A DNA stretch of 9,923 nucleotides from Candidatus Nanopusillus sp. Lineage in GTDB: Archaea; Nanobdellota; Nanobdellia; Nanobdellales; Nanobdellaceae. Where the stretch lies: contig JBMSAQ010000039.1 of NCBI GenBank assembly GCA_049414405.1, positions 1-9,923 of the forward strand. The letters run 5' to 3'. Position 1 is the first letter of the stretch. Every line of letters starts with the position of its first letter. This document shows positions 1-9,799 of the stretch, piece by piece. The position numbers and the translations under genes are program-made. The notes beneath the pieces were generated by a model that was not told where the DNA came from, searched no databases, and saw only the letters and a list, made by a program, of their open reading frames with translations.

Positions 1-647
1 ACATATGCTCCATAGAATGTATCTGTTAATATTCTAGCTAAAATAACTAATAATAAAAAAGTAATAGCTTTGTATATTATTAATCCTATTTTTTCATGTA
101 TGTAATCTTTAAAATATTTTAAATTTAATATTTTATTAAAAATTTTAATTATTTTGTCATAATATATTATTAAATTAATAAACAATTCTTTCAAGAAAAA
201 TTTATTAATTTTATATTTTTCTTTTATATAGAATTTTTTATTTCCTAAATATGTTAATAAAAAATTTTCATATATTTTGATGTTTTTCCCAAATATTATA
301 TAAGAATCTATTAAATGAAAGATTAAGAATTTTTTTCTTATTAAACTGATAAACCCATCTTTAAATTTTCTTTTTCTATATATATCGTAAATATTTTTAT
401 TTACATTATTGTATATTATTATATTATTTCCTTCAATTTTTAATTTTCTGATATCTTTTTTATTTTCTAACAAATAAAATGTTAGATTATACCTGTCTTT
501 TAATTTAAGTGCTATGTCTTTATATTTTTTATATGTTATACAAATTAGATTCAAATTATTTTTTTGGCAAAAATCGTATAATAATCTAATATTATAAATT
601 AATTTTTTTGTATCTTTATTTAAAAAAATATAAATTACATTATCCAT
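1..647 (-). CDS. hypothetical protein, partial (C-terminus runs off the left window edge); third gene of the aglB-led minus-strand operon
   Basis: Found by manual minus-strand translation. The ATG is at 647..645 (MDNVIYIFLNKDTKKLIYNIRLLYDFCQKNN...) and an in-frame TAG lies just upstream at 662..660. I checked all 215 plus-strand triplets from 3 to 647 and none is TTA, CTA or TCA, so the frame is open to the edge, in DNA where stop codons are compositionally common. The start overlaps the upstream gene's stop (642..640) by 8 nt. A hydrophobic segment (IGLIIYKAITFLLLVILARIL) begins near the edge. It is probably absent from the ORF track because no stop codon lies in the window. I recognise no family. 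Confidence 0.6.
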   Translation of the reverse strand, partial: MDNVIYIFLNKDTKKLIYNIRLLYDFCQKNNLNLICITYKKYKDIALKLKDRYNLTFYLLENKKDIRKLKIEGNNIIIYNNVNKNIYDIYRKRKFKDGFISLIRKKFLIFHLIDSYIIFGKNIKIYENFLLTYLGNKKFYIKEKYKINKFFLKELFINLIIYYDKIIKIFNKILNLKYFKDYIHEKIGLIIYKAITFLLLVILARILTDTFYGAY

Positions 648-1650
648 ATAAAAAAGCTGCTATCGTTATTACAATTTGTAATAAAATTATTGTATATACC
701 ACCATTTTTTCTGTTGCTTTTCCAAATAATTTTTTATTTATCCTAATTGCAAGATGAGTAATGCTGTATATTTTGTTATATGGTTCTTTTAAATTATTAT
801 TTTCATCAGGTATTCCAAAATTTTCTTTATATACGTGATTTAATAATCCTCTAATAAACAATATTAATTCTAAGAAATATAGCGTAAATAAAATTAATCC
901 AAATTTTTCAAAATTTCCTAATATTACTATTGCACCGAATAAGGATCCAATACCATATGTAAATGCATTTCCTGGAAATACTTTTGATGGATGCCAATTA
1001 AACATTAGAAATGCCATTATTGAAAATATCGTTATCAAAGATATCTCTGCTAGATAATAATTACCAGTTAAATATGATTTTAGTCCAACAGCGCCAATCA
1101 ACAAGATACCCATAGATCCTTCTAGACCATTATATCCAGCAATCATATTGAATGCATTTGATGTACCCATTATTACAATTGGCACTATTAATAGTGGATA
1201 TAATATTCCAAGGTTTACTTCTCCTATAAATGGTAGATTAATATATGAGCTACCTGCTGATATTATCATTAATGGTAATGCTAATATAAATGAGAGAATT
1301 GCCTTTTGTAAAGGTTTCATGCCTTTTTTCCATCCCAATATATCATCAAATAACCCCAATATTGTAATTAATGATAATAGTGTCAATATTGAAAATACTT
1401 CTACTAAATTTTGCGTAGTTCCAAATATATATACTTTTAATCCTATATATAATAGTATTCCAAATATTGTACCGATTATTGCATATAAACCTCCAATTTC
1501 TGCTACTTTTGGTTTATCATACTTATTCATATCTTTTCCCACATATCCTTCTCTATGAGCAACAGGTATCCACTTTTTTATTAGATAATATGAAACAAAA
1601 AAAGACAATATTAGTGGTAATGTAGCAATTAAAATTTCTTTATACATCAT
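640..1650 (-). CDS. aglH: UDP-GlcNAc:dolichyl-phosphate GlcNAc-1-phosphate transferase (glycosyltransferase family 4, MraY/WecA/GPT superfamily; AglH-like)
   Basis: The 336-aa polytopic membrane protein carries the family motifs FDDILG (D102, D103) and NAFNMIAGYNGLE (165-177). The latter matches the eukaryote/archaeal GPT form N-A-x-N-x-x-A-G-x-N-G-L-E rather than the bacterial DGxDGL form. PSKVFPGNAFTYGIG aligns with the family's GD(T/S) motif region. The start (ATGATG at 1650..1645) overlaps the aglB stop (1642..1640). Confidence 0.85.
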   Translation of the reverse strand: MMYKEILIATLPLILSFFVSYYLIKKWIPVAHREGYVGKDMNKYDKPKVAEIGGLYAIIGTIFGILLYIGLKVYIFGTTQNLVEVFSILTLLSLITILGLFDDILGWKKGMKPLQKAILSFILALPLMIISAGSSYINLPFIGEVNLGILYPLLIVPIVIMGTSNAFNMIAGYNGLEGSMGILLIGAVGLKSYLTGNYYLAEISLITIFSIMAFLMFNWHPSKVFPGNAFTYGIGSLFGAIVILGNFEKFGLILFTLYFLELILFIRGLLNHVYKENFGIPDENNNLKEPYNKIYSITHLAIRINKKLFGKATEKMVVYTIILLQIVITIAAFLYG

Positions 1651-4600
1651 AATAACTTTTTAAATTCTCATAATAGGCTAAGTTATATATTCTTCCACAT
1701 TCATTTATTTGTTGAATATTCGTTGCAAGATAAATACAATATAAGTGGTCAGGAACTGTGAAATTTTCAGGGAAATTTATCTTCCATACTTTTGCTGGTG
1801 GGATATCATAATATATTATTGGAGAGAATCCGTATAGTAAATTTGAATAAAATACGAGCTCAAATGTTCCATTATAATTATTATTTAAAAAGTAAAGTTG
1901 TACCCAATTATATTGTGTGGCTTTTTGTGATATGAAATATGCATATAAGAACAATCCTAGAGGATTTTGCTGTCTTAATAATGAATAGGCTGGAGATATA
2001 TATAATAACCCACCATATTGGGAATCATTAAATGTAACTAATTGTCCGTTTATATATACATGTTTTAATGAAAGTGTATATTGTTGATTATTTAATGGAT
2101 TATAGATATATACATATGCTTCTATTAAATTGTCTGGATTAATATTGTTTATATCTAATGTTTGATATATTCCAGATCTTCTTACTATAGATTGGTTAAA
2201 TAATAATTGAACACCTGTTATTATTCCACAACTATTTTGATTAATTATACCCTTATTATGTACATATATACACCTATTTATTATTGTCCCATTAATATTT
2301 AAAGTTTCATCCAATGGTTCTTGACCAAAGTAAAATAAACTATTGTTTGTTGCAAATATATAATATCCATTATAATATACTGATGGTATTGCTGGTCCTG
2401 GATTTGCTGTTGTTCCAGATACAAACAGAGATATCCAAGATTCTTTGTCATAGCTTTCATTTGATCCTAAAAATTGAAATGCAAAAGATTTTCCTATATC
2501 TGTAGGATCTATGTATAAATATGCCGGTTTCAAATAATTCATTTCATATAATTTTTCTAGTAATTCTATATTTCTTTGAGATAAATTATACGATGAAATA
2601 GATTCAGAAGAACCGTTGAATTGATATAATAGATTTATCCAATTTTTATATCCCAATGAATCTTTTAATTTTTTAATTTCATTTACTTCACTTTCATTAA
2701 ATCCTAAGTATATATATAAATAATCATAAAATATAGAGTTTTTATTGAATAATTCTAATGTTTTAAATGTTTGATAATTATAATTTGCATGTACATAAAA
2801 TAATTCTAATGTTTGTGTTATATTTTCTGAAGATAATCCGTATCTGCCCATTAAATGGTTCCAATATGGGTAAGAATTTGCACCATTTATCCAGGCAGTT
2901 CTATTTCCTATCACATAAATATAATATCCATAATCCCACCAAGAATTTATAATGGAGTCTTGGGGAGTATTTTGACTTATCCATAAGAAAGTATTTATTA
3001 AATAGTCTGGAGTTCCGTATGGAGCAGCACTTGAAAAATAGTTAATTATGTATCCAGGATATCCGTAAATTCTATTATTTATAGAAAATAAAGCACCAAA
3101 TATTGTAAATAAGATTAAACTATATTTAAATAAATTAAATAAATCTAAATATTTATTCAATATATACCCATATAGAATATATATTGCTAAAAATACTAAT
3201 GGAATTAAGAATAAAAATATTTTTGTTGATATAAATAGAGATATTCCAGAAATAGATGAAATTAATAATAATATTAATATTAAATTTTCTTTTATAATAT
3301 TTTTTAACCTAGAAAATTCGTCCCTAAATAAATTAAATATTTCTATACCGAGTATATATAATAGTGGAAGAGCTAGACCACTGTAAAAGACCAATCTATA
3401 TGTATATTTTCCTAAAAGAAGAGCTATAAGCGATAGTAATAATATAAAGATTTCTTTGTCGCTTAGATTTCTATTAAATAATGAAATGTAAATTAATAAA
3501 ATTAAAAAAGAAATCCAAGATATAAACATATTTATAAATATACCATTAATTACTAAATCTGAAAATATTATAAATTGAAGCGCAATTGACAACGCAGATA
3601 CTTCAAAAATTGTCTTTATTAAAATATATTTATTATTTTCTCTATTATATGATATTATAAATGCAGAATATATTAGTAAATAAAATATTAAAATATATAT
3701 AGAAGGGCTAATGAGAAGTTCTGATACAGCTAATATAAATATAAATAAGAATTGTGAAATTAAAAGATTTTTAGGTTTAGTTCTATCAAATATTAAATAT
3801 CCTAAACCTAAATAAGTTAATACTAAGCCAATCTGTCCAAATAAACTTAAATAATATCCTGCGGTGGTTGGTTGAAATTCTGCAACTGTGGAACCAATTC
3901 TTTCATAGGTAAATGGGTTATACAAGAAAGATATAATTAATTTATTAATTAAAAAAGGCAATGATATGGCAAGAATTATTAGAAATATTATATATTTTTT
4001 TAGTAATTTGTTGTCTTTGATATACTTTCTTATAATGTATATTAATATTCCCGGAATTATTCCAGATAAAATAGATAATATCAATAGATATGTTTTATTT
4101 TCAGTAATTATTTCCAATATCTTATTATCTTTGAATATTTCATATAAAAATAATACAAGCATTGAAAGTTCTATAAACAAATTCTCATAACTTAAAAACA
4201 AATCAATTCCTAAAGATCCAGGTATTATTAATTCGTCTAATATTCCAGTAAATCCTATATATGGTAGGTAGAAGTATATATCCTTATAATCTCTATCATA
4301 AAAGTATCTAACCAATAATATTAAACCAAAAACAATTGGTATTATTATCCAACCACCCCAACCTTTCCTAGCTAATGCGGTAGTAAATATTAATAATGTT
4401 AGATAATAAGCTCTCGATCCTTTAAATATTGGATATAATAATAAGAGTATAAAGAAGAATATAAATAATTCAATTGTTAAATATACGTCAGGATTTGGTA
4501 ATAAAGACGTTTTATAAAATATTATTAAGCTAATAATAGAATAAAGAATTAAGAGTAACTTTTTGTATTTGTTATCTTCTGGTTTTGCATTAAGATATTT

Positions 4601-5218
4601 AATTATAAGGTAAAAAGATAGTACTAAAAAAATAATTGCACCCAATTCAGTATCAAACGAGATCAATCTTGTTGTCAAGAACGGGTTTATAGCAAGAATT
4701 ATAGAAGAAAAAAATGCTAAATATCTATCTTCAAATATATTTTTTGCTAAGAAATAAAATATAATTGAAGCAATTGCTGATACGTATACGTTGGTAAAGT
4801 TTGCTGATAACCATAATATATTATTGGATGCCGGATATATTTGTAAAATATTTAATAATGCGATAATCTGACTGCCAAAATTTTGGAACATTAAATAAGA
4901 TAAAAATGCTAAATAAGATACAAGATTTTTATTGTACAAATAAAATGGTAATGGATAATGTAAATCATAGGTAATACTATTTAATGTATGATTAAATACT
5001 AAAGATTCAAAATATTTAAACATTAAATATGCATCAGGCCCTACTAAAGAATAATCTCCCAAGAAATTAATTAATAAACCTTTTGATCCTAAAGCAAATA
5101 AAAATATAAATATAATTATTAATATGTCTATAAATATATTCTTTGATAATATTTTTCTAAATCTATTAAATTTTGTTTCTTGATGATTATTATTTAAATC
5201 AGAATTTTCAGATATCAT
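1640..5218 (-). CDS. aglB: dolichyl-(pyro)phosphooligosaccharide-protein glycosyltransferase, STT3/AglB family, unusually large (1192 aa)
   Basis: The signature WWDYGY is at residues 760-765 (nt 2941..2924), followed by GNRTAWINGANSYPYWNHLMG, which resembles the eukaryotic STT3 NRTT..WNNTHIA block. An EL5 motif STVAEFQPTT (T444-E447, nt 3889..3878) resembles STT3 SVSEHQPTT. SFDTE (D189, E191) resembles STT3 SYDNE. GPDAY (D62) lies in the first loop. A DK-type motif TDIGKSFAF (D907-K910, nt 2500..2489) resembles STT3 DDINKFLWM. Many TM helices occupy the first ~715 residues. Confidence 0.92.
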   Translation of the reverse strand: MISENSDLNNNHQETKFNRFRKILSKNIFIDILIIIFIFLFALGSKGLLINFLGDYSLVGPDAYLMFKYFESLVFNHTLNSITYDLHYPLPFYLYNKNLVSYLAFLSYLMFQNFGSQIIALLNILQIYPASNNILWLSANFTNVYVSAIASIIFYFLAKNIFEDRYLAFFSSIILAINPFLTTRLISFDTELGAIIFLVLSFYLIIKYLNAKPEDNKYKKLLLILYSIISLIIFYKTSLLPNPDVYLTIELFIFFFILLLLYPIFKGSRAYYLTLLIFTTALARKGWGGWIIIPIVFGLILLVRYFYDRDYKDIYFYLPYIGFTGILDELIIPGSLGIDLFLSYENLFIELSMLVLFLYEIFKDNKILEIITENKTYLLILSILSGIIPGILIYIIRKYIKDNKLLKKYIIFLIILAISLPFLINKLIISFLYNPFTYERIGSTVAEFQPTTAGYYLSLFGQIGLVLTYLGLGYLIFDRTKPKNLLISQFLFIFILAVSELLISPSIYILIFYLLIYSAFIISYNRENNKYILIKTIFEVSALSIALQFIIFSDLVINGIFINMFISWISFLILLIYISLFNRNLSDKEIFILLLSLIALLLGKYTYRLVFYSGLALPLLYILGIEIFNLFRDEFSRLKNIIKENLILILLLISSISGISLFISTKIFLFLIPLVFLAIYILYGYILNKYLDLFNLFKYSLILFTIFGALFSINNRIYGYPGYIINYFSSAAPYGTPDYLINTFLWISQNTPQDSIINSWWDYGYYIYVIGNRTAWINGANSYPYWNHLMGRYGLSSENITQTLELFYVHANYNYQTFKTLELFNKNSIFYDYLYIYLGFNESEVNEIKKLKDSLGYKNWINLLYQFNGSSESISSYNLSQRNIELLEKLYEMNYLKPAYLYIDPTDIGKSFAFQFLGSNESYDKESWISLFVSGTTANPGPAIPSVYYNGYYIFATNNSLFYFGQEPLDETLNINGTIINRCIYVHNKGIINQNSCGIITGVQLLFNQSIVRRSGIYQTLDINNINPDNLIEAYVYIYNPLNNQQYTLSLKHVYINGQLVTFNDSQYGGLLYISPAYSLLRQQNPLGLFLYAYFISQKATQYNWVQLYFLNNNYNGTFELVFYSNLLYGFSPIIYYDIPPAKVWKINFPENFTVPDHLYCIYLATNIQQINECGRIYNLAYYENLKSYYDV

Positions 5219-5271
5219 TTTTACATAATTTTAATAAAAGATTTAAAAATTATTTTATAATTACTTACAAT
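5219..5271. promoter_or_regulatory. 53-bp divergent promoter region between aglB (-) and rps28e (+) with a central A/T-only TATA-like element
   Basis: This is the whole spacer between the two divergent ATGs (5218 and 5272). ATTTAAAAAT at 5241..5250 is centred about 26.5 nt from the rps28e ATG and about 27.5 nt from the aglB ATG. That is the usual archaeal TATA-to-TSS spacing if both mRNAs are leaderless. A-rich BRE-like sequence flanks it on both sides. A second TATA-like TTTTATAA lies at 5253..5260. There is no experimental support. Confidence 0.4.
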
Positions 5272-5565
5272 ATGCCTAAAAGAGTTGTATCGAAAACTGG
5301 TGAAGAAGGCATAAGAAATGCTGAAGAAAATATTGTAAAAGAAAATATTGTAACATGGACTAAAGGATATAAAGCAGAAGTATTAGATGTTGTAGGAAGA
5401 ACCGGCATGAGGGGTGAAGCCACACATGTTATTGTGAGGGTACTTGATGGTCCAGATTCTGGAAAAATCCTCAGAAGAAATGTAATAGGACCTATTAGAA
5501 AGGGAGATATGGTATTATTAAGGGAGACAGAGATATCAGCTATGCCAATTGAAAAGAAAGATTAA
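5272..5565 (+). CDS. rps28e: 30S ribosomal protein S28e (eS28) with an N-terminal extension
   Basis: The core AEVLDVVGRTGMRGEATHVIVRVLDGPDSGKILRRNVIGPIRKGDMVLLRETE is a clear match to the S28e pattern (..GRTG..G....V.V.......G....RNV.GP.R.GD...L.E.E). I chose the start at the ATG of MPKRVV (5272). The track's 5173 start would overlap aglB and the promoter spacer and adds only low-complexity sequence. Confidence 0.9.
   Translation: MPKRVVSKTGEEGIRNAEENIVKENIVTWTKGYKAEVLDVVGRTGMRGEATHVIVRVLDGPDSGKILRRNVIGPIRKGDMVLLRETEISAMPIEKKD
5326..5355 (+). repeat. in-frame 15-bp tandem duplication (2 copies, 14/15 identical) inside the rps28e N-terminal extension
   Basis: GAAAATATTGTAAAA (5326..5340) is followed directly by GAAAATATTGTAACA (5341..5355). 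The copies encode ENIVK-ENIVT. This was read directly from the sequence. Confidence 0.7.
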
Positions 5566-5747: not shown

Positions 5748-6337
5748 ATGGAAGACATTTAATACAAAGGACATTAGTGATATTAAAACCAGATAGTGTT
5801 AAAAGGGGAATTATTGGGGAAATAATATCTAGATTTGAAAGGGCTGGTTTAAAAATTGTGGGATTAAAAATGATAAAATTAACTAGGGAACAGGCAGAAA
5901 AATTTTATTATGCAGATGAAAAATGGTTAGAAAGCGTTGGAAATAAGACAACAACAAGATATAAGGAGGTAGGATTGGATCCTGTAAAAGAATTTGGGAC
6001 TGATGATCCAAAGAAAATTGGGAGTATAATAAGAGGATGGCTGGTAGATTTTATAACATCTAGTCCAGTAGTTGCTATAGTATTGGAAGGTGTTAATTGT
6101 GTAGAAGTAGTTAGAAAATTAGTTGGACCTACAGAACCTTTAAAAGCTCCACCAGGTACTATTAGAGGCGATTATGCTCATGTATCAATAGCTTATGCAA
6201 ATTGGAATAAGATTGTTTTAAGAAATGTTGTTCACGCATCCGAGACTGAGAAAGATGCGGAAAGGGAAATATCTATAATATTCAGGCCAGAAGAAATATA
6301 TAATTATGAGAGGAATATTGAAGAAGTCATCTATTAA
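5744..6337 (+). CDS. ndk: nucleoside diphosphate kinase, long form (197 aa) with two insertions
   Basis: RTLVILKPDSVKRGIIGEIISRFERAGLKIVGLKM, SSPVVAIVLEG.N.VEVVRKLVGPT.P..A.PGTIRGDY and NVVHAS (catalytic His164, nt 6233..6235) all match the NDK family. The position after rps28e-rpl24e matches the gene order I recall as conserved in archaea. Confidence 0.92.
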   Translation: MNGRHLIQRTLVILKPDSVKRGIIGEIISRFERAGLKIVGLKMIKLTREQAEKFYYADEKWLESVGNKTTTRYKEVGLDPVKEFGTDDPKKIGSIIRGWLVDFITSSPVVAIVLEGVNCVEVVRKLVGPTEPLKAPPGTIRGDYAHVSIAYANWNKIVLRNVVHASETEKDAEREISIIFRPEEIYNYERNIEEVIY

Positions 6338-6968
6338 AGATAAAATTTTGATTTTTTTAATAGTATTTTCGATTGTCATGATAATAGCATCAATAATGTA
6401 TAGATATTTATTTCATCCAGTATACTCTCTTAAATTACCATATGTTTACGATATTTTAGATAACGAAACTGAAATTGGATATTATGAACTAAATTTAACA
6501 ACTTATGATATAATTAAAATATCAATAAATGGTGTACTTAATCCAAAAAATCTTAATTTTAATAATCCAAATATTTCTGTAGAATTTATTAATAAAGTAA
6601 ACAATCATTTATTGAATAATTCTTTATATATGAAAAATTACGAATTGTATTATAAAAAATTAAACATAATATATCCGCAATATTCGTTTATACTATGCAT
6701 AGAAGATTCCTGTGGGGCTTTTGTATTTACTAGTAATGGGATTACAAATATACCAATTTCATATATAAGTAATATAAATAATACGTTGGTAATTTATCTT
6801 TCGTATCCAATGTCAGAAAAGATTTTAAATTATTTAGAATATAATGATGGAAATTTTGTAGATATAATTAAAAATGGGTTAGAAAAGGGGGAAATTAAAG
6901 TATTAAATAATAATCAATTAGTTCAAAATATTCTTAATTTGTACACCCTTAATATTAGTATAGAATAA
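6306..6968 (+). CDS. hypothetical membrane-anchored (predicted extracellular) Asn-rich protein
   Basis: This 220-aa ORF has a basic N-terminus (MRGILKKSSIKDK) followed by one hydrophobic helix (ILIFLIVFSIVMIIASIMY). The rest is Asn/Tyr/Ile-rich with 6 N-x-S/T sequons (N53, N63, N89, N104, N158, N216) and 2 Cys. The start overlaps the ndk 3' end by 32 nt. Later starts would truncate the helix. I recognise no family. Confidence 0.55.
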   Translation: MRGILKKSSIKDKILIFLIVFSIVMIIASIMYRYLFHPVYSLKLPYVYDILDNETEIGYYELNLTTYDIIKISINGVLNPKNLNFNNPNISVEFINKVNNHLLNNSLYMKNYELYYKKLNIIYPQYSFILCIEDSCGAFVFTSNGITNIPISYISNINNTLVIYLSYPMSEKILNYLEYNDGNFVDIIKNGLEKGEIKVLNNNQLVQNILNLYTLNISIE

Positions 6969-6975
6969 AATTAAA

Positions 6976-7842
6976 CTATGTTTCAAATGGACTAATTGAT
7001 TTTAATAATATGATAAACATAACAGTACCCATAGGTAATATTAATAGTATACTCATTAGCTGAATAAATTTTATATATTGAAAGTCCGTTCCAGAGATAG
7101 ACCCCATTAAAGTAGTTAATATAATTACAAATATGACCCCAACAATTATTAGTGTTATATATATTTCTAAAAATATTTGCATATTATTTGAATATTCTAT
7201 TATCTTTCTTTTATATTCTTCAAACAATTTAGAAGCTTCATTATATAAATATTCTTCAATATTTCCACCTTCAACTATTATAGATCGCATACCATTTAAT
7301 ATTGAGGCCCATTTTTTTGATGGGGAATATTCAGCTTTTCTCTCTAATGCTACTGGTAATGATAATCCTACCGTATCTATTAAATATATTATTTCAGATG
7401 CTTCTTTTTTTATTTCCGAAAATTCACCATATTTTGATAATAATTCGAATAATGCTTTTGGAGTAGCACCAGAAGAAACCAAAGATGCCATATACAATAT
7501 AGCATAATATAGAGAATTATCTATTTTTCTAGCTCTATTTTGTTTTTCTATTGAAGGATATTTCTTAAATAATAATAGAGATCCAAAGAATCCCAAAATA
7601 CCGGCAAGTATTCCAAATATTATCGGAAAAACTGGATTAAAAGAATTATTTACTTTTATATTATATATTAAAAGGGAAAAGAATGTTAGTATTGATAATG
7701 ATATAGATATTCCTATGGAGTATATTGTAGCTTTATATATATAACTAGAAGGACTTTCTTTAGAATTAATTATTAATAAATCTTTTTCTATACCACTAAA
7801 GAATTGATCAAATATACTGACCATATATTTAAATATTAACAT
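6976..7842 (-). CDS. type IV filament platform protein, single T2SSF domain (resembles the N-terminal half of archaeal FlaJ/PilC/TadC-like proteins)
   Basis: The 288-aa protein has two TM helices, then a cytoplasmic domain RKIDNSLYYAILYMASLVSSGATPKALFELLSKYGEFSEIKKEASEIIYLIDTVGLSLPVALERKAEYSPSKKWASILNGMRSIIVEGGNIEEYL, then two more TM helices. That domain matches the T2SSF pattern (LP..l.ym..l..aG..p..a.......G.d...AL......pS......G.......GG......L). The start may instead be Met7 (ATG at 7824..7822, MVSIFDQFF); see the promoter feature. Confidence 0.75.
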   Translation of the reverse strand: MLIFKYMVSIFDQFFSGIEKDLLIINSKESPSSYIYKATIYSIGISISLSILTFFSLLIYNIKVNNSFNPVFPIIFGILAGILGFFGSLLLFKKYPSIEKQNRARKIDNSLYYAILYMASLVSSGATPKALFELLSKYGEFSEIKKEASEIIYLIDTVGLSLPVALERKAEYSPSKKWASILNGMRSIIVEGGNIEEYLYNEASKLFEEYKRKIIEYSNNMQIFLEIYITLIIVGVIFVIILTTLMGSISGTDFQYIKFIQLMSILLILPMGTVMFIILLKSISPFET

Positions 7843-7859
7843 CTAAAATTAAAAGTATA
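7825..7859. promoter_or_regulatory. compact bidirectional promoter between the two T2SSF genes with two crossed TATA-like boxes
   Basis: TTTAAATA at 7828..7835 is centred about 28 nt upstream of the plus-strand ATG (7860). TTTTAATTTT on the minus strand (7854..7845) is centred about 25 nt upstream of the alternative minus-strand ATG at 7824. The annotated starts (7842 and 7860) are only 17 bp apart, which leaves no room for a BRE/TATA promoter for either gene. Confidence 0.35.
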
Positions 7860-9116
7860 ATGATAGCCAATAAATATAATAGGAGAATAAATCAAAAAGG
7901 ATTTATTGAAAGATTTATAGATCAATTTTTCAATATAAGAGATCCATTACACTATAAGGAAATAAATGTTTTTGGTTCATATATTAAGGAAGATAAGTTT
8001 GTATTGTATATATCTATCCTATTTGCAGCAATTATTGGAATATTTGGATTAATATTTAAATTACATGAAAATTACATAACATTTTCAATTTTGATATTGG
8101 TTATATATTTTGTAGGAGGAGTTCCATATTTATTTTATAAGTATATTGAAAGTAAAATATATGAAAATATATATAATAATTATACATACTTTTTATCTTA
8201 TTTATCTGAAAGTTTAGCATCCGGAATGACATTATTAGATGCTTTATCATATTTATCATCAGTAGATTTGGGATATTTATCCATTTTAGTTAAAAGGTTG
8301 TATAATTGGATTGCTTGGGGTATGCCATTTGAAAAGGCGTTTACATTATTTAATATGTACTTTGAAGATCTTCCAAATATAAAAATGATTAATTATGTAA
8401 TACTAGAAACATATAAAGGTGGAGGAGATATTTCAAAAGTTTTAAAAAAATTATATAATGATTTAGAGTCTATAAAAGAATTAGATAGGCTAAAGAAGGC
8501 ATATATATCACAACAAATTTTGGTTTTATATGCTATATTTGTTATATTTATAGGATTATCTATTTCTATATTAAATACAATTAAACCATTGATAGCAAGC
8601 CAAATTTCAGCAGCTACTGTTCAAACATCTTTTAATTTCTTTTCTTCTTCAATAGATTATCCTTGGTTAAAATTTATTACAGCCTTATCAATAATTTTAG
8701 TAGGAATTTCATCATCAATTGTAATGGGTATTGCTGAAAGCGGAAAAATAAGATCATCGGTAAAGCATTTAGCAATAAATAATTTAATAGGATTATTGTC
8801 TATAATAATATTTGTTTTGCCATCTTTTGTATCATTTAATTTACAGGTGTTCCCAACAAATGCTTATATATATACCCCAATAAATATACAAGTGTATGGA
8901 TATATTGATGCACAACCAATAACAAATGCTCCATTGGCGATATATGTAATAAATTCAACTGGAGATTATGTTTATCAAAATTTTCAAATATTACAGAATG
9001 GATACTATTCCCAGTCTATTATATTGAATAATACTGGTACGTATATTATAGAAGCCATATTGGATTATAATGGTAAAAAATACATACAAAAGCAGAGCAT
9101 TAATGTAATAATATGA
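7860..9116 (+). CDS. type IV filament platform protein, single T2SSF domain (resembles the C-terminal half of FlaJ/PilC/TadC-like proteins) fused to a C-terminal beta-sandwich-like domain
   Basis: The 418-aa protein has two TM helices, then YTYFLSYLSESLASGMTLLDALSYLSS...WGMPFEKAF...YKGGGDISKVLKKLYNDLE, which is a T2SSF pattern and visibly paralogous to the divergent gene. Three further TM helices follow, including the FlaJ-like GIAESGKIRSSVKH segment. Residues ~326-418 are non-hydrophobic with alternating beta-strand-like periodicity. Confidence 0.75.
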   Translation: MIANKYNRRINQKGFIERFIDQFFNIRDPLHYKEINVFGSYIKEDKFVLYISILFAAIIGIFGLIFKLHENYITFSILILVIYFVGGVPYLFYKYIESKIYENIYNNYTYFLSYLSESLASGMTLLDALSYLSSVDLGYLSILVKRLYNWIAWGMPFEKAFTLFNMYFEDLPNIKMINYVILETYKGGGDISKVLKKLYNDLESIKELDRLKKAYISQQILVLYAIFVIFIGLSISILNTIKPLIASQISAATVQTSFNFFSSSIDYPWLKFITALSIILVGISSSIVMGIAESGKIRSSVKHLAINNLIGLLSIIIFVLPSFVSFNLQVFPTNAYIYTPINIQVYGYIDAQPITNAPLAIYVINSTGDYVYQNFQILQNGYYSQSIILNNTGTYIIEAILDYNGKKYIQKQSINVII

Positions 9117-9799
9117 AGTCTCAAAGTTGGATTGAAGTATTAATTACACTTGCTGTATTTTTATACATTATAATTTATATTTATCAGAGTATAGTTAGTG
9201 GAGTAGCACAGTATTCATCCGGATTGTATAAAATGTCAGAATATCAAAAATTATATATTAGTTCATTTTATTTTTCTCAATTCCATGATCCATGGCAAAT
9301 ATATAATTATTTAAATTTTTCTTTTTCATATTATTATGTTCCAAAAGTTATATTTTTGTCTACAAATTCGCATATTTGTAACAATTGCATAGAATTTTTC
9401 TATAATACTAGTTCAAATGCTATAGGAATAATACAGAGATCTTATGTGAATGTATCATCAGTTTTGCAAGTTTACATATATGGATCAACACAGAATATTA
9501 GTATAATAAATAACTCAGCATATTATAATTGTTATGATCATCTAAGTTCATCTTTTTTTGCAGTATATACAAGAACTTATCTATATTGTAATTTTAATTT
9601 AATTGGAAATTCTAGTATTTACATAAATACAAATGAAAAATTTTTAATTATAAATAATTATAATACTGTACTATACTTATATAATGGAGATAAGATTGTA
9701 GGTCTTCCAAATATATTAATGAACGTTTATCCAACAGTACATTTAAATTATTTCCAATATTTTAATGGATCTATAAATTATATATTTTTATATGGATAA
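9113..9799 (+). CDS. putative type IV pilin-like / class III signal peptide protein, sequon-rich
   Basis: The 228-aa ORF's ATG overlaps the upstream TGA (ATGA at 9113..9116). The N-terminus MKS|[21 protein letters not shown] fits a prepilin-peptidase site, with K at -2, a small residue at -1, Q at +1 and E at +5, followed by a ~20-residue hydrophobic helix. The rest carries 7 N-x-S/T sequons (N68, N98, N113, N128, N133, N166, N218) and 4 Cys, including CNNC. The CDS call is fairly safe. The pilin assignment rests on motif and context only. Confidence 0.5.

Follow-up and report, generated by a model that had tools for sequence, protein, structure and literature searches.

We have analyzed a stretch of 9,923 nucleotides from Candidatus Nanopusillus sp. 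(contig JBMSAQ010000039.1; the window) that contains two genes related to the membrane platform proteins of type IV filament machines, arranged head to head. The open reading frames (ORFs) are ORF1 on the minus strand and ORF2 on the plus strand. They encode complementary single-domain platform proteins, ORF1 corresponding to the N-terminal half and ORF2 to the C-terminal half of a two-domain platform, and the two genes are co-inherited and co-located. The most reasonable reading of the analysis is that ORF1 and ORF2 work as one platform. We consider it likely, as a prediction from sequence, that they are the N and C subunits of a two-gene platform belonging to a type IV pilus-like machine that is not an archaellum, and that the split is ancient and inherited. 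Specific to the family Nanopusillaceae are the inversion of one gene, the lack of an ATPase gene within 10 kb, and a conserved spacer of 35-38 bp with two TATA-like boxes. Nanopusillus-type nanoarchaea are obligate ectosymbionts with genomes of ~0.6 Mb, and type IV pili are suspected to take part in the host attachment of nanoarchaeal ectosymbionts. The features are collected in Table 1.

Each protein contains a single T2SSF domain (PF00482), as the first-pass annotation of the window had proposed. The Pfam match extends over amino acids 115-242 of ORF1 (E = 3.5e-15, 56.5 bits) and 111-237 of ORF2 (E = 3.5e-14, 53.3 bits), against a gathering threshold of 25.2 bits. From hydropathy and the positive-inside rule, ORF1 is predicted to have four transmembrane helices with both termini in the cytoplasm, and ORF2 five with its C-terminus outside. 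In both proteins a K/R-rich domain of 128-130 amino acids lies between the second and third helices. AlphaFold2 (AF2) models have pLDDT values of 89.6 for ORF1 and 81.1 for ORF2, and the T2SSF regions of both are all-helical. In a Foldseek search of the PDB the cytoplasmic domain of ORF1 matched those of EpsF (2vmb, 3c1q), PilC (2whn) and OutF (5nbg), with TM-scores of 0.66-0.73 on the target and a root-mean-square deviation of ~3 Å. Sequence searches of the PDB with ORF1 and ORF2 returned nothing relevant.

The two proteins map onto different halves of a full-length platform. On the NCBIfam model NF004704 (ArlJ/FlaJ, 555 positions) ORF1 aligns with positions 11-248 and ORF2 with 269-542, so that there is no overlap; on NF004705 (465 positions) the alignments are to 2-174 and 191-453. 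Four fused two-domain relatives give the same result. ORF1 scores 78-90 bits on their N-terminal halves and -2 to 24 on their C-terminal halves, while ORF2 scores 36-51 bits on the C-terminal halves and 5 or less on the N-terminal halves. Profiles of the N and C families show this complementary pattern again on a fused haloarchaeal platform from Salinibaculum. Neither ORF spans both repeats and no half is shared, and the original assignment of halves therefore holds. The paralogy of the two domains had been called visible. The motifs quoted for it occur at the places given and a profile-profile comparison is significant (hhalign E = 2.2e-6, probability 89%, 116 columns), but pairwise BLASTP of ORF1 against ORF2 finds no significant similarity (E = 5.8). 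An (I/F)DQFF-like motif is present near the N-terminus of both halves.

Fused archaeal platforms (FlaJ/ArlJ, PilC3-type, UpsF and BasF; the sequences P0197, P0202, P0210 and P0253, Methanomicrobia among them; and the Salinibaculum protein, L092) thus have N as their first half and C as their second. Their architecture of ~9 transmembrane helices is reproduced by ORF1 and ORF2 jointly. The difference is that a fused platform is one polypeptide with a charged cytoplasmic linker, whereas here there are two, with a C-terminus and a new N-terminus in the place of the linker.

The best NCBIfam matches of both ORFs are to ArlJ/FlaJ, and relatives are annotated publicly as "type II secretion system F family" or "FlaJ (TadC family)". 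This raises the question of whether the pair could be a split version of the ArlJ/FlaJ platform of the nanoarchaeal archaellum, and in Nanoclepta an archaellin gene is indeed found ~9 kb away. The scores argue otherwise. Against the ArlJ/FlaJ equivalog models NF004703-5, ORF1 reaches 91, 65 and 29 bits and ORF2 60 and 34 bits, each covering half a model, where the cutoffs are 400-570 (550 and 400 for the scores of 91 and 60). Moreover Nanobsidianus Nst1 has a separate full-length FlaJ of 549 amino acids (arCOG01809), and the available part of the gene list of a related Yellowstone nanoarchaeote includes a FlaJ gene of 1650 bp. The ATPase encoded beside the platform genes in relatives is PilB3-type, without FlaH, FlaG or FlaF neighbors. 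We regard a split archaellum platform as highly improbable.

We examined the arrangement of these genes by using an alignment of ORF1 relatives to scan prokaryotic genomes, one per species. This gave 80 loci, all from DPANN archaea. ORFs were called in all of them, and three profiles were built, covering the N and C families and the neighboring ATPase. The N profile detected 89 ORFs and the C profile 88, with zero overlap at E < 1e-10. Sixty-eight loci come from outside Nanopusillaceae, from Undinarchaeota, Nanohaloarchaeota, Woesearchaeota/Nanoarchaeia, Aenigmatarchaeota and Micrarchaeota. In 67 of these N is followed by C, adjacent and on the same strand, and the one remaining locus is truncated by a contig end. 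Directly upstream, in the order ATPase-N-C, there is a gene for a T2SSE ATPase in 62 of the 68, and four of the other six are at contig ends. These operon ATPases carry Pfam T2SSE and PilB3_C domains.

The Nanopusillaceae set comprised 13 species genomes, three of them complete (CP010514, AP019769 and AP031373), together with metagenomic copies; its members are Nanopusillus, Nanobsidianus Nst1, Nanobdella, YN1 and Nanoclepta. Every locus has the divergent C/N pair, and both ORFs are intact in 13/13 species genomes and in all the metagenomic copies. Genes for ribosomal proteins, for nucleoside diphosphate kinase (NDK) and for membrane proteins specific to the family surround the pair, as does a probable N-glycosylation cluster; there is no archaellum (fla/arl) cluster. 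ORF1 has its best genomic match in a Nanopusillus metagenome-assembled genome (98% identity). ORF2 is 100% identical to a protein from a JGI hot-spring metagenome and shares 87% identity with Nps_01915 from Candidatus Nanopusillus acidilobi.

The two genes are on opposite strands with no shared ATPase nearby, and they might be independent paralogs of different machines, each acting alone as in TadB-only actinobacterial systems and neighbors by chance. Nanoarchaeota do possess several type IV pilus-like systems, and more ATPases than obvious platforms. However, there is strictly one N for each C, and the two lie side by side in essentially all the loci examined; the halves are complementary rather than identical. 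Adjacency and spacer are kept within Nanopusillaceae despite divergence of the proteins to 46-57% identity. A chance association of unrelated paralogs is in our judgment decidedly unlikely.

A different possibility is that the pair is the decaying, non-functional remnant of an operon that has lost its ATPase. With no ATPase within 10 kb and the reduced genome of a symbiont this could be imagined, but it is hard to reconcile with two ORFs that have remained intact throughout the family and with the conservation of both the spacer and the pilin-like neighbor described below. The genes are under purifying selection, omega being 0.10-0.15 for both and ~0.13 for ORF2. We find a decaying remnant scarcely credible.

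How did the split arise? An exhaustive profile search of 1.84 billion representative proteins gave 3031 relatives of ORF1. The best 150 of these are mostly single-domain proteins of 280-300 amino acids, and 4 of the 150 are fused two-T2SSF proteins (624-699 amino acids, 2 of the 4 from Methanomicrobia). As to whether relatives carry a fused gene, the closest of them do not; they are split. ORF1 scores 150-169 bits against split operon proteins and 83-98 against fused ones; for ORF2 the corresponding values are 116-133 and 36-51. A neighbor-joining tree groups all the split N proteins in a single clade that excludes the N halves of fused proteins. Since split relatives are far closer to ORF1 and ORF2 than fused ones, the split state appears to have been inherited. 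Parsimony favors a history in which Nanopusillaceae inherited an ancient split, after which one gene was inverted and the pair became separated from the ATPase.

The first-pass annotation had instead connected the fission to the split-gene tendency of Nanoarchaeum. A fission of this kind, specific to the lineage, with the halves afterwards placed head to head, would be in keeping with the way in which the halves map cleanly onto the two parts of a fused platform, N and C, and with the position of Nanopusillaceae on a branch of their own, sister to the other split sequences. Yet both families are separate genes in the 68 other loci, as tandem N and C genes in ATPase-N-C operons of at least five other DPANN phyla, and both ORFs have split proteins as their nearest relatives. 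The split state is known, too, in euryarchaea that are not reduced, and a separate event would require the same domain boundary to have been hit twice. We conclude that the split has no specific connection to the split genes of Nanoarchaeum, and that a lineage-specific fission is very unlikely.

The spacer between the two genes depends on where ORF1 starts. The ORF was listed as 288 amino acids, from an ATG at 7842, and the spacer as ~17-35 bp. That ATG is missing in more distant family members, while the methionine at 7824 is kept. The first six codons of the longer ORF (MLIFKY, window 7825-7842) overlap a conserved palindromic ATATTTAAATAT element, and gene callers give the N gene of relatives 277-282 amino acids. 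Because Met 7824 is conserved and the ATG at 7842 is not, ORF1 is probably 282 amino acids long with a spacer of 35 bp, and the 288-residue annotation is probably 18 nt too long. The description of a short divergent spacer stands, and such a spacer is conserved.

In an alignment of 10 family members the spacer has the consensus CAT-ATATTTAAATATT...AAAAT(T/A)AAAAGTATA-ATG. Its outer blocks of 13 nt are 80-89% identical across the family, whereas the coding sequence next to them reaches 41-47% and the middle of the spacer 49%. Close relatives in Nanopusillus and Nst1 differ at 1-2 of the 35 nt, where the synonymous divergence pS is 0.35-0.40. The TATA box of archaeal promoters is located at about -26/-27. 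Each of the outer blocks holds a TATA-like box, centered ~27-28 nt from the start codon that it would serve at the opposite end of the spacer, which suggests two leaderless divergent transcripts. The geometry is that expected for two divergent leaderless archaeal promoters, probably co-regulated, and the spacer is a candidate for a minimal bidirectional archaeal promoter.

ORF2 is predicted to continue after its fifth transmembrane helix into an extracellular all-beta domain with an immunoglobulin (Ig)-like fold, an unusual feature for a platform protein. In the AF2 model this has eight strands with pLDDT of 85-92. Foldseek relates it to the macroglobulin MG domains (2p9r, TM-score 0.67-0.72) and to a CARDB domain of Pyrococcus (3idu, ~0.6), and one relative (P0115) has a Pfam Big_3_5 match. 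Two N-glycosylation sequons fall within it, at N365 and N390. Among relatives outside Nanopusillaceae, the C proteins of Nanoarchaeia/Woesearchaeota operons alone have a C-terminal extension of similar length. A search for sequence similarity to the ORF2 domain outside Nanopusillaceae detected none, these extensions included.

Downstream of the C gene lies a gene for a protein of 228 amino acids. All the Nanopusillaceae loci have it in this position, and it is conserved in no other locus. It is probably co-transcribed with the C gene because it overlaps the stop codon of the latter by 4 nt. The protein begins M-K-S|Q-S-W-I-E-V-L-I-T, with a short basic leader; cleavage after K-S/G would leave Gln as residue +1 and Glu as residue +5. 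Within the family the N-terminal motif M[KR][SG][QI][SH]WIE[VF]L is nearly invariant while the remainder diverges. Omega is 0.17-0.19 for the gene, and there are seven N-x-S/T sequons. The KS|Q or KG|Q type of N-terminus resembles the KG|Q processing sites of the Epd pilins (PMC4371748). The protein is likely to be a pilin-like substrate or minor pilin restricted to Nanopusillaceae, as predicted from these features. An extracellular Ig-like domain on a platform subunit, together with a pilin-like neighbor, is of note given the suspected role of pili in attachment to the host.

We can now suggest how the system may have arisen and might operate. An ancestral DPANN operon would have had the order PilB3-like ATPase, N, C, the split being old. 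In Nanopusillaceae one gene would have been inverted and the pair unlinked from the ATPase. The two genes would now fire divergently from the 35-38 bp spacer with its back-to-back TATA-like boxes, giving two leaderless and probably co-regulated transcripts. The products, with 4 + 5 transmembrane helices and one T2SSF bundle in each half, would associate in a pseudo-two-fold unit like a fused FlaJ/PilC-type protein. A PilB3-type ATPase encoded elsewhere would dock on the two-half unit and drive it. Pilins, the candidates including the 228-amino acid protein, would be inserted and polymerized through the platform after processing by a prepilin peptidase also encoded elsewhere. That an ATPase partner acts in trans is plausible, because the VirB11-family ATPases of Nst1 number five, of which three belong to clade 2 (PMC4858521 supplement); the GI numbers given there for these ATPases carry no information on their gene neighborhoods. 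The supplement of Jarett et al. (2018) lists, in its available part, ATPase genes of 2244, 1785 and 1494 bp in a related Yellowstone nanoarchaeote genome. Read in this way, the pair is a clean natural case in which the genes for two subunits of a membrane complex have passed from tandem to divergent order while keeping a tiny conserved shared control region, and the components of the pilus are scattered in Nanopusillaceae genomes.

A more elaborate scheme can be drawn up, in which the divergent, ATPase-less pair is an orphan platform shared or exchanged among unlinked VirB11-family ATPases, the Ig-like domain contacts the filament base, the S-layer or the host, and the bidirectional promoter enforces a 1:1 ratio of the halves. 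We think this scheme unlikely.

Several observations weigh against a single inherited platform driven in trans. The window contains neither a secretion ATPase nor a prepilin peptidase, as first noted, and neither is found within 10 kb of the pair in any Nanopusillaceae locus, even with a relaxed profile threshold in the case of the ATPase; nor is a proven pilin linked to the pair. A search for the partner in a large protein collection, using the ATPase of an operon from hot-spring Nanoarchaeia (L029) as query, gave 7882 matches, and among the best 120 none is named Nanopusillus. The Foldseek list of ORF2 is taken up mostly by matches to its Ig-like domain, which would mask any to its cytoplasmic domain. 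The model of promoters and leaderless transcripts draws on sequence conservation alone, in a genome of 24% GC where TATA-like strings are common. The neighbor-joining tree places Nanopusillaceae as the sister group of the other DPANN sequences and not nested inside them; the same point might have been split a second time, independently, though this would be unparsimonious. We nevertheless prefer the reading of ORF1 and ORF2 as two halves of one anciently split platform.

Platforms of this kind have precedents. Makarova et al. (2016, PMC4858521) described archaeal type IV pilus loci with "two TadC components", and many clade-2 euryarchaeal loci with two tadC-like genes. The PilB3-type two-gene platforms of their clade 2 and of the DPANN ATPase-N-C operons belong to the same N and C families as ORF1 and ORF2, with scores of 100-170 bits and matching topology, and likewise have one T2SSF per gene, N being the first half and C the second. 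The PilB3_C domain of the related operon ATPases points to clade 2 rather than clade 1. These platform genes, however, are tandem and co-directional with the ATPase, whereas ORF1 and ORF2 are divergent and unlinked from an ATPase, with their conserved spacer of 35-38 bp and an Ig-like C-terminal end.

Denise et al. (2019, PMC6668835) found two single-T2SSF genes both in the Epd-like systems of archaea and in the Tad systems of bacteria, and argued that they arose by gene fission; in their alignments TadC corresponds to the N half and TadB to the C half. EpdJ and EpdK are each essential for piliation in Methanococcus maripaludis (PMC4371748). EpdJ/EpdK and TadB/TadC are thus, like ORF1/ORF2, pairs of single-T2SSF platform genes thought to derive by fission of a two-domain ancestor. 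Secretin, TadZ and CpaB-type components are all absent here. In our hands Azospirillum TadB scored 15 bits with the N profile and 22 with the C profile, and TadC -3 and 11; this was a single locus, and the scores are too weak for assigning halves.

The link between two-gene archaeal platforms and those of Tad, a relation raised in the first-pass annotation, has already been published (Denise et al., 2019). The same is true of the two-gene archaeal platform and its origin by fission (Denise et al., 2019; Makarova et al., 2016), so that only the gene order is unusual here. Across DPANN archaea this pilus family normally has its platform encoded by two genes, and the locus does not reopen the archaeal-Tad question.

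Multiple platforms in one organism have been reported; Nanoarchaeota from Yellowstone have several FlaJ/TadC homologs, two type IV pilus systems and one archaellum (Jarett et al., 2018). We also came across a second type of split-platform operon, on two AT-rich (28-29% GC) archaeal contigs (L089 1330-8179 and L090 4269-8382). The order is ATPase, small ORF, an N-like gene with an N-terminal extension of 150-170 amino acids, and a short C-like gene. The sequence of ATPase, N-like and C-like genes, with one T2SSF per platform gene, is as in the ATPase-N-C operons. The differences are the intervening small ORF, the extended N-like protein and the ATPase, which is shorter in L090 (~515 amino acids) and in L089 bears an intein (1486 amino acids with intein and LAGLIDADG domains); the proteins are also much more distant from ORF1 and ORF2, with scores of 55-78 bits. 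In the available part of the Yellowstone nanoarchaeote gene list, the consecutively numbered genes 2735310732-734 encode an ATPase (1494 bp) and two T2SSF proteins (1380 and 825 bp), with sizes that fit the L089/L090 type better than the ORF1/ORF2 pair. Because of this match in gene sizes, Nanopusillaceae may carry two split platforms.

Table 1. Features of the window, in order of position, with strand.
Feature	Position	Strand	Comment
GT4 glycosyltransferase	640-1650	-	follows the gene for the 1192-aa protein
1192-aa polytopic protein with WWDYG motif	1640-5218	-	no Pfam match at E ≤ 1
Ribosomal S28e ORF	5173-5565	+	130 aa from TTG as listed; Pfam match covers aa 64-123
220-aa membrane-anchored ORF	6306-6968	+	convergent with ORF1, 7 nt between stops; overlaps end of NDK gene by 32 nt
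N-half platform gene (N, ORF1)	6976-7842	-	single T2SSF, 4 predicted transmembrane helices; 288 aa listed, 282 aa from Met at 7824
T2SSF cytoplasmic helical domain of N half	7117-7500	-	aa 115-242; Pfam, AF2, fold matches
Divergent spacer	7825-7859		35 bp; conserved 35-38 bp across Nanopusillaceae; two TATA-like boxes
TATA-like box TTTAAATA	7828-7835	+	center ~28 nt upstream of ORF2 ATG; putative C-half promoter, leaderless transcript
TATA-like box (TTTTAATT on minus strand)	7847-7854	-	center ~27 nt upstream of Met 7824; putative N-half promoter
C-half platform gene (C, ORF2)	7860-9116	+	418 aa, single T2SSF, 5 predicted transmembrane helices, predicted extracellular C-terminal beta domain
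T2SSF cytoplasmic helical domain of C half	8190-8570	+	aa 111-237; Pfam, AF2
All-beta Ig-like sandwich of C half	8829-9110	+	aa 324-417; predicted extracellular after fifth helix; AF2, Foldseek
228-aa pilin-like gene	9113-9799	+	overlaps C-half stop by 4 nt; short class III-type signal, then hydrophobic helix

The remainder of the window (~24% G+C) encodes a GT4 glycosyltransferase, a membrane protein of 1192 amino acids that carries a WWDYG motif, the ribosomal proteins S28e and L24e, NDK, and two family-specific membrane-anchored proteins of 220 and 228 amino acids, the latter being the pilin-like protein. The 1192-amino acid protein has no Pfam match at E ≤ 1; we take its WWDYG motif to be that typical of the AglB/STT3 oligosaccharyltransferases. 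In relatives a Polysacc_synt flippase-like gene comes after the GT4 gene. The genes for the 1192-amino acid protein and GT4 are probably an N-glycosylation cluster adjoining the pilus genes. The 220-amino acid ORF, for which there is no Pfam match, is conserved only in Nanopusillaceae, with an invariant C..DSC motif, and is not pilin-like. The true start of S28e is internal to the ORF as listed, because the Pfam match is confined to residues 64-123 and gene callers give 72-97 amino acids in relatives. At the left end (positions 1-640), the first 500 nt have a G+C content of only 14% and hold no ORF of 50 amino acids or more.

Two further observations were made on relatives. In Nanoclepta (L006) a phage-type integrase (6297-7235) lies ~1 kb past the conserved block on the side of the C gene, just beyond the 228-amino acid ORF and a gene for an NTP-transferase, at the point where the gene order ceases to match that of Nanopusillus; the archaellin gene of this contig is on the opposite side from the integrase. 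Many other relatives (P0189, P0207, P0225, P0240, P0252 and others) have a single N-like T2SSF module at their very C-terminal end, following 140-740 amino acids without a Pfam match, and two such proteins are annotated as Woesearchaeota.

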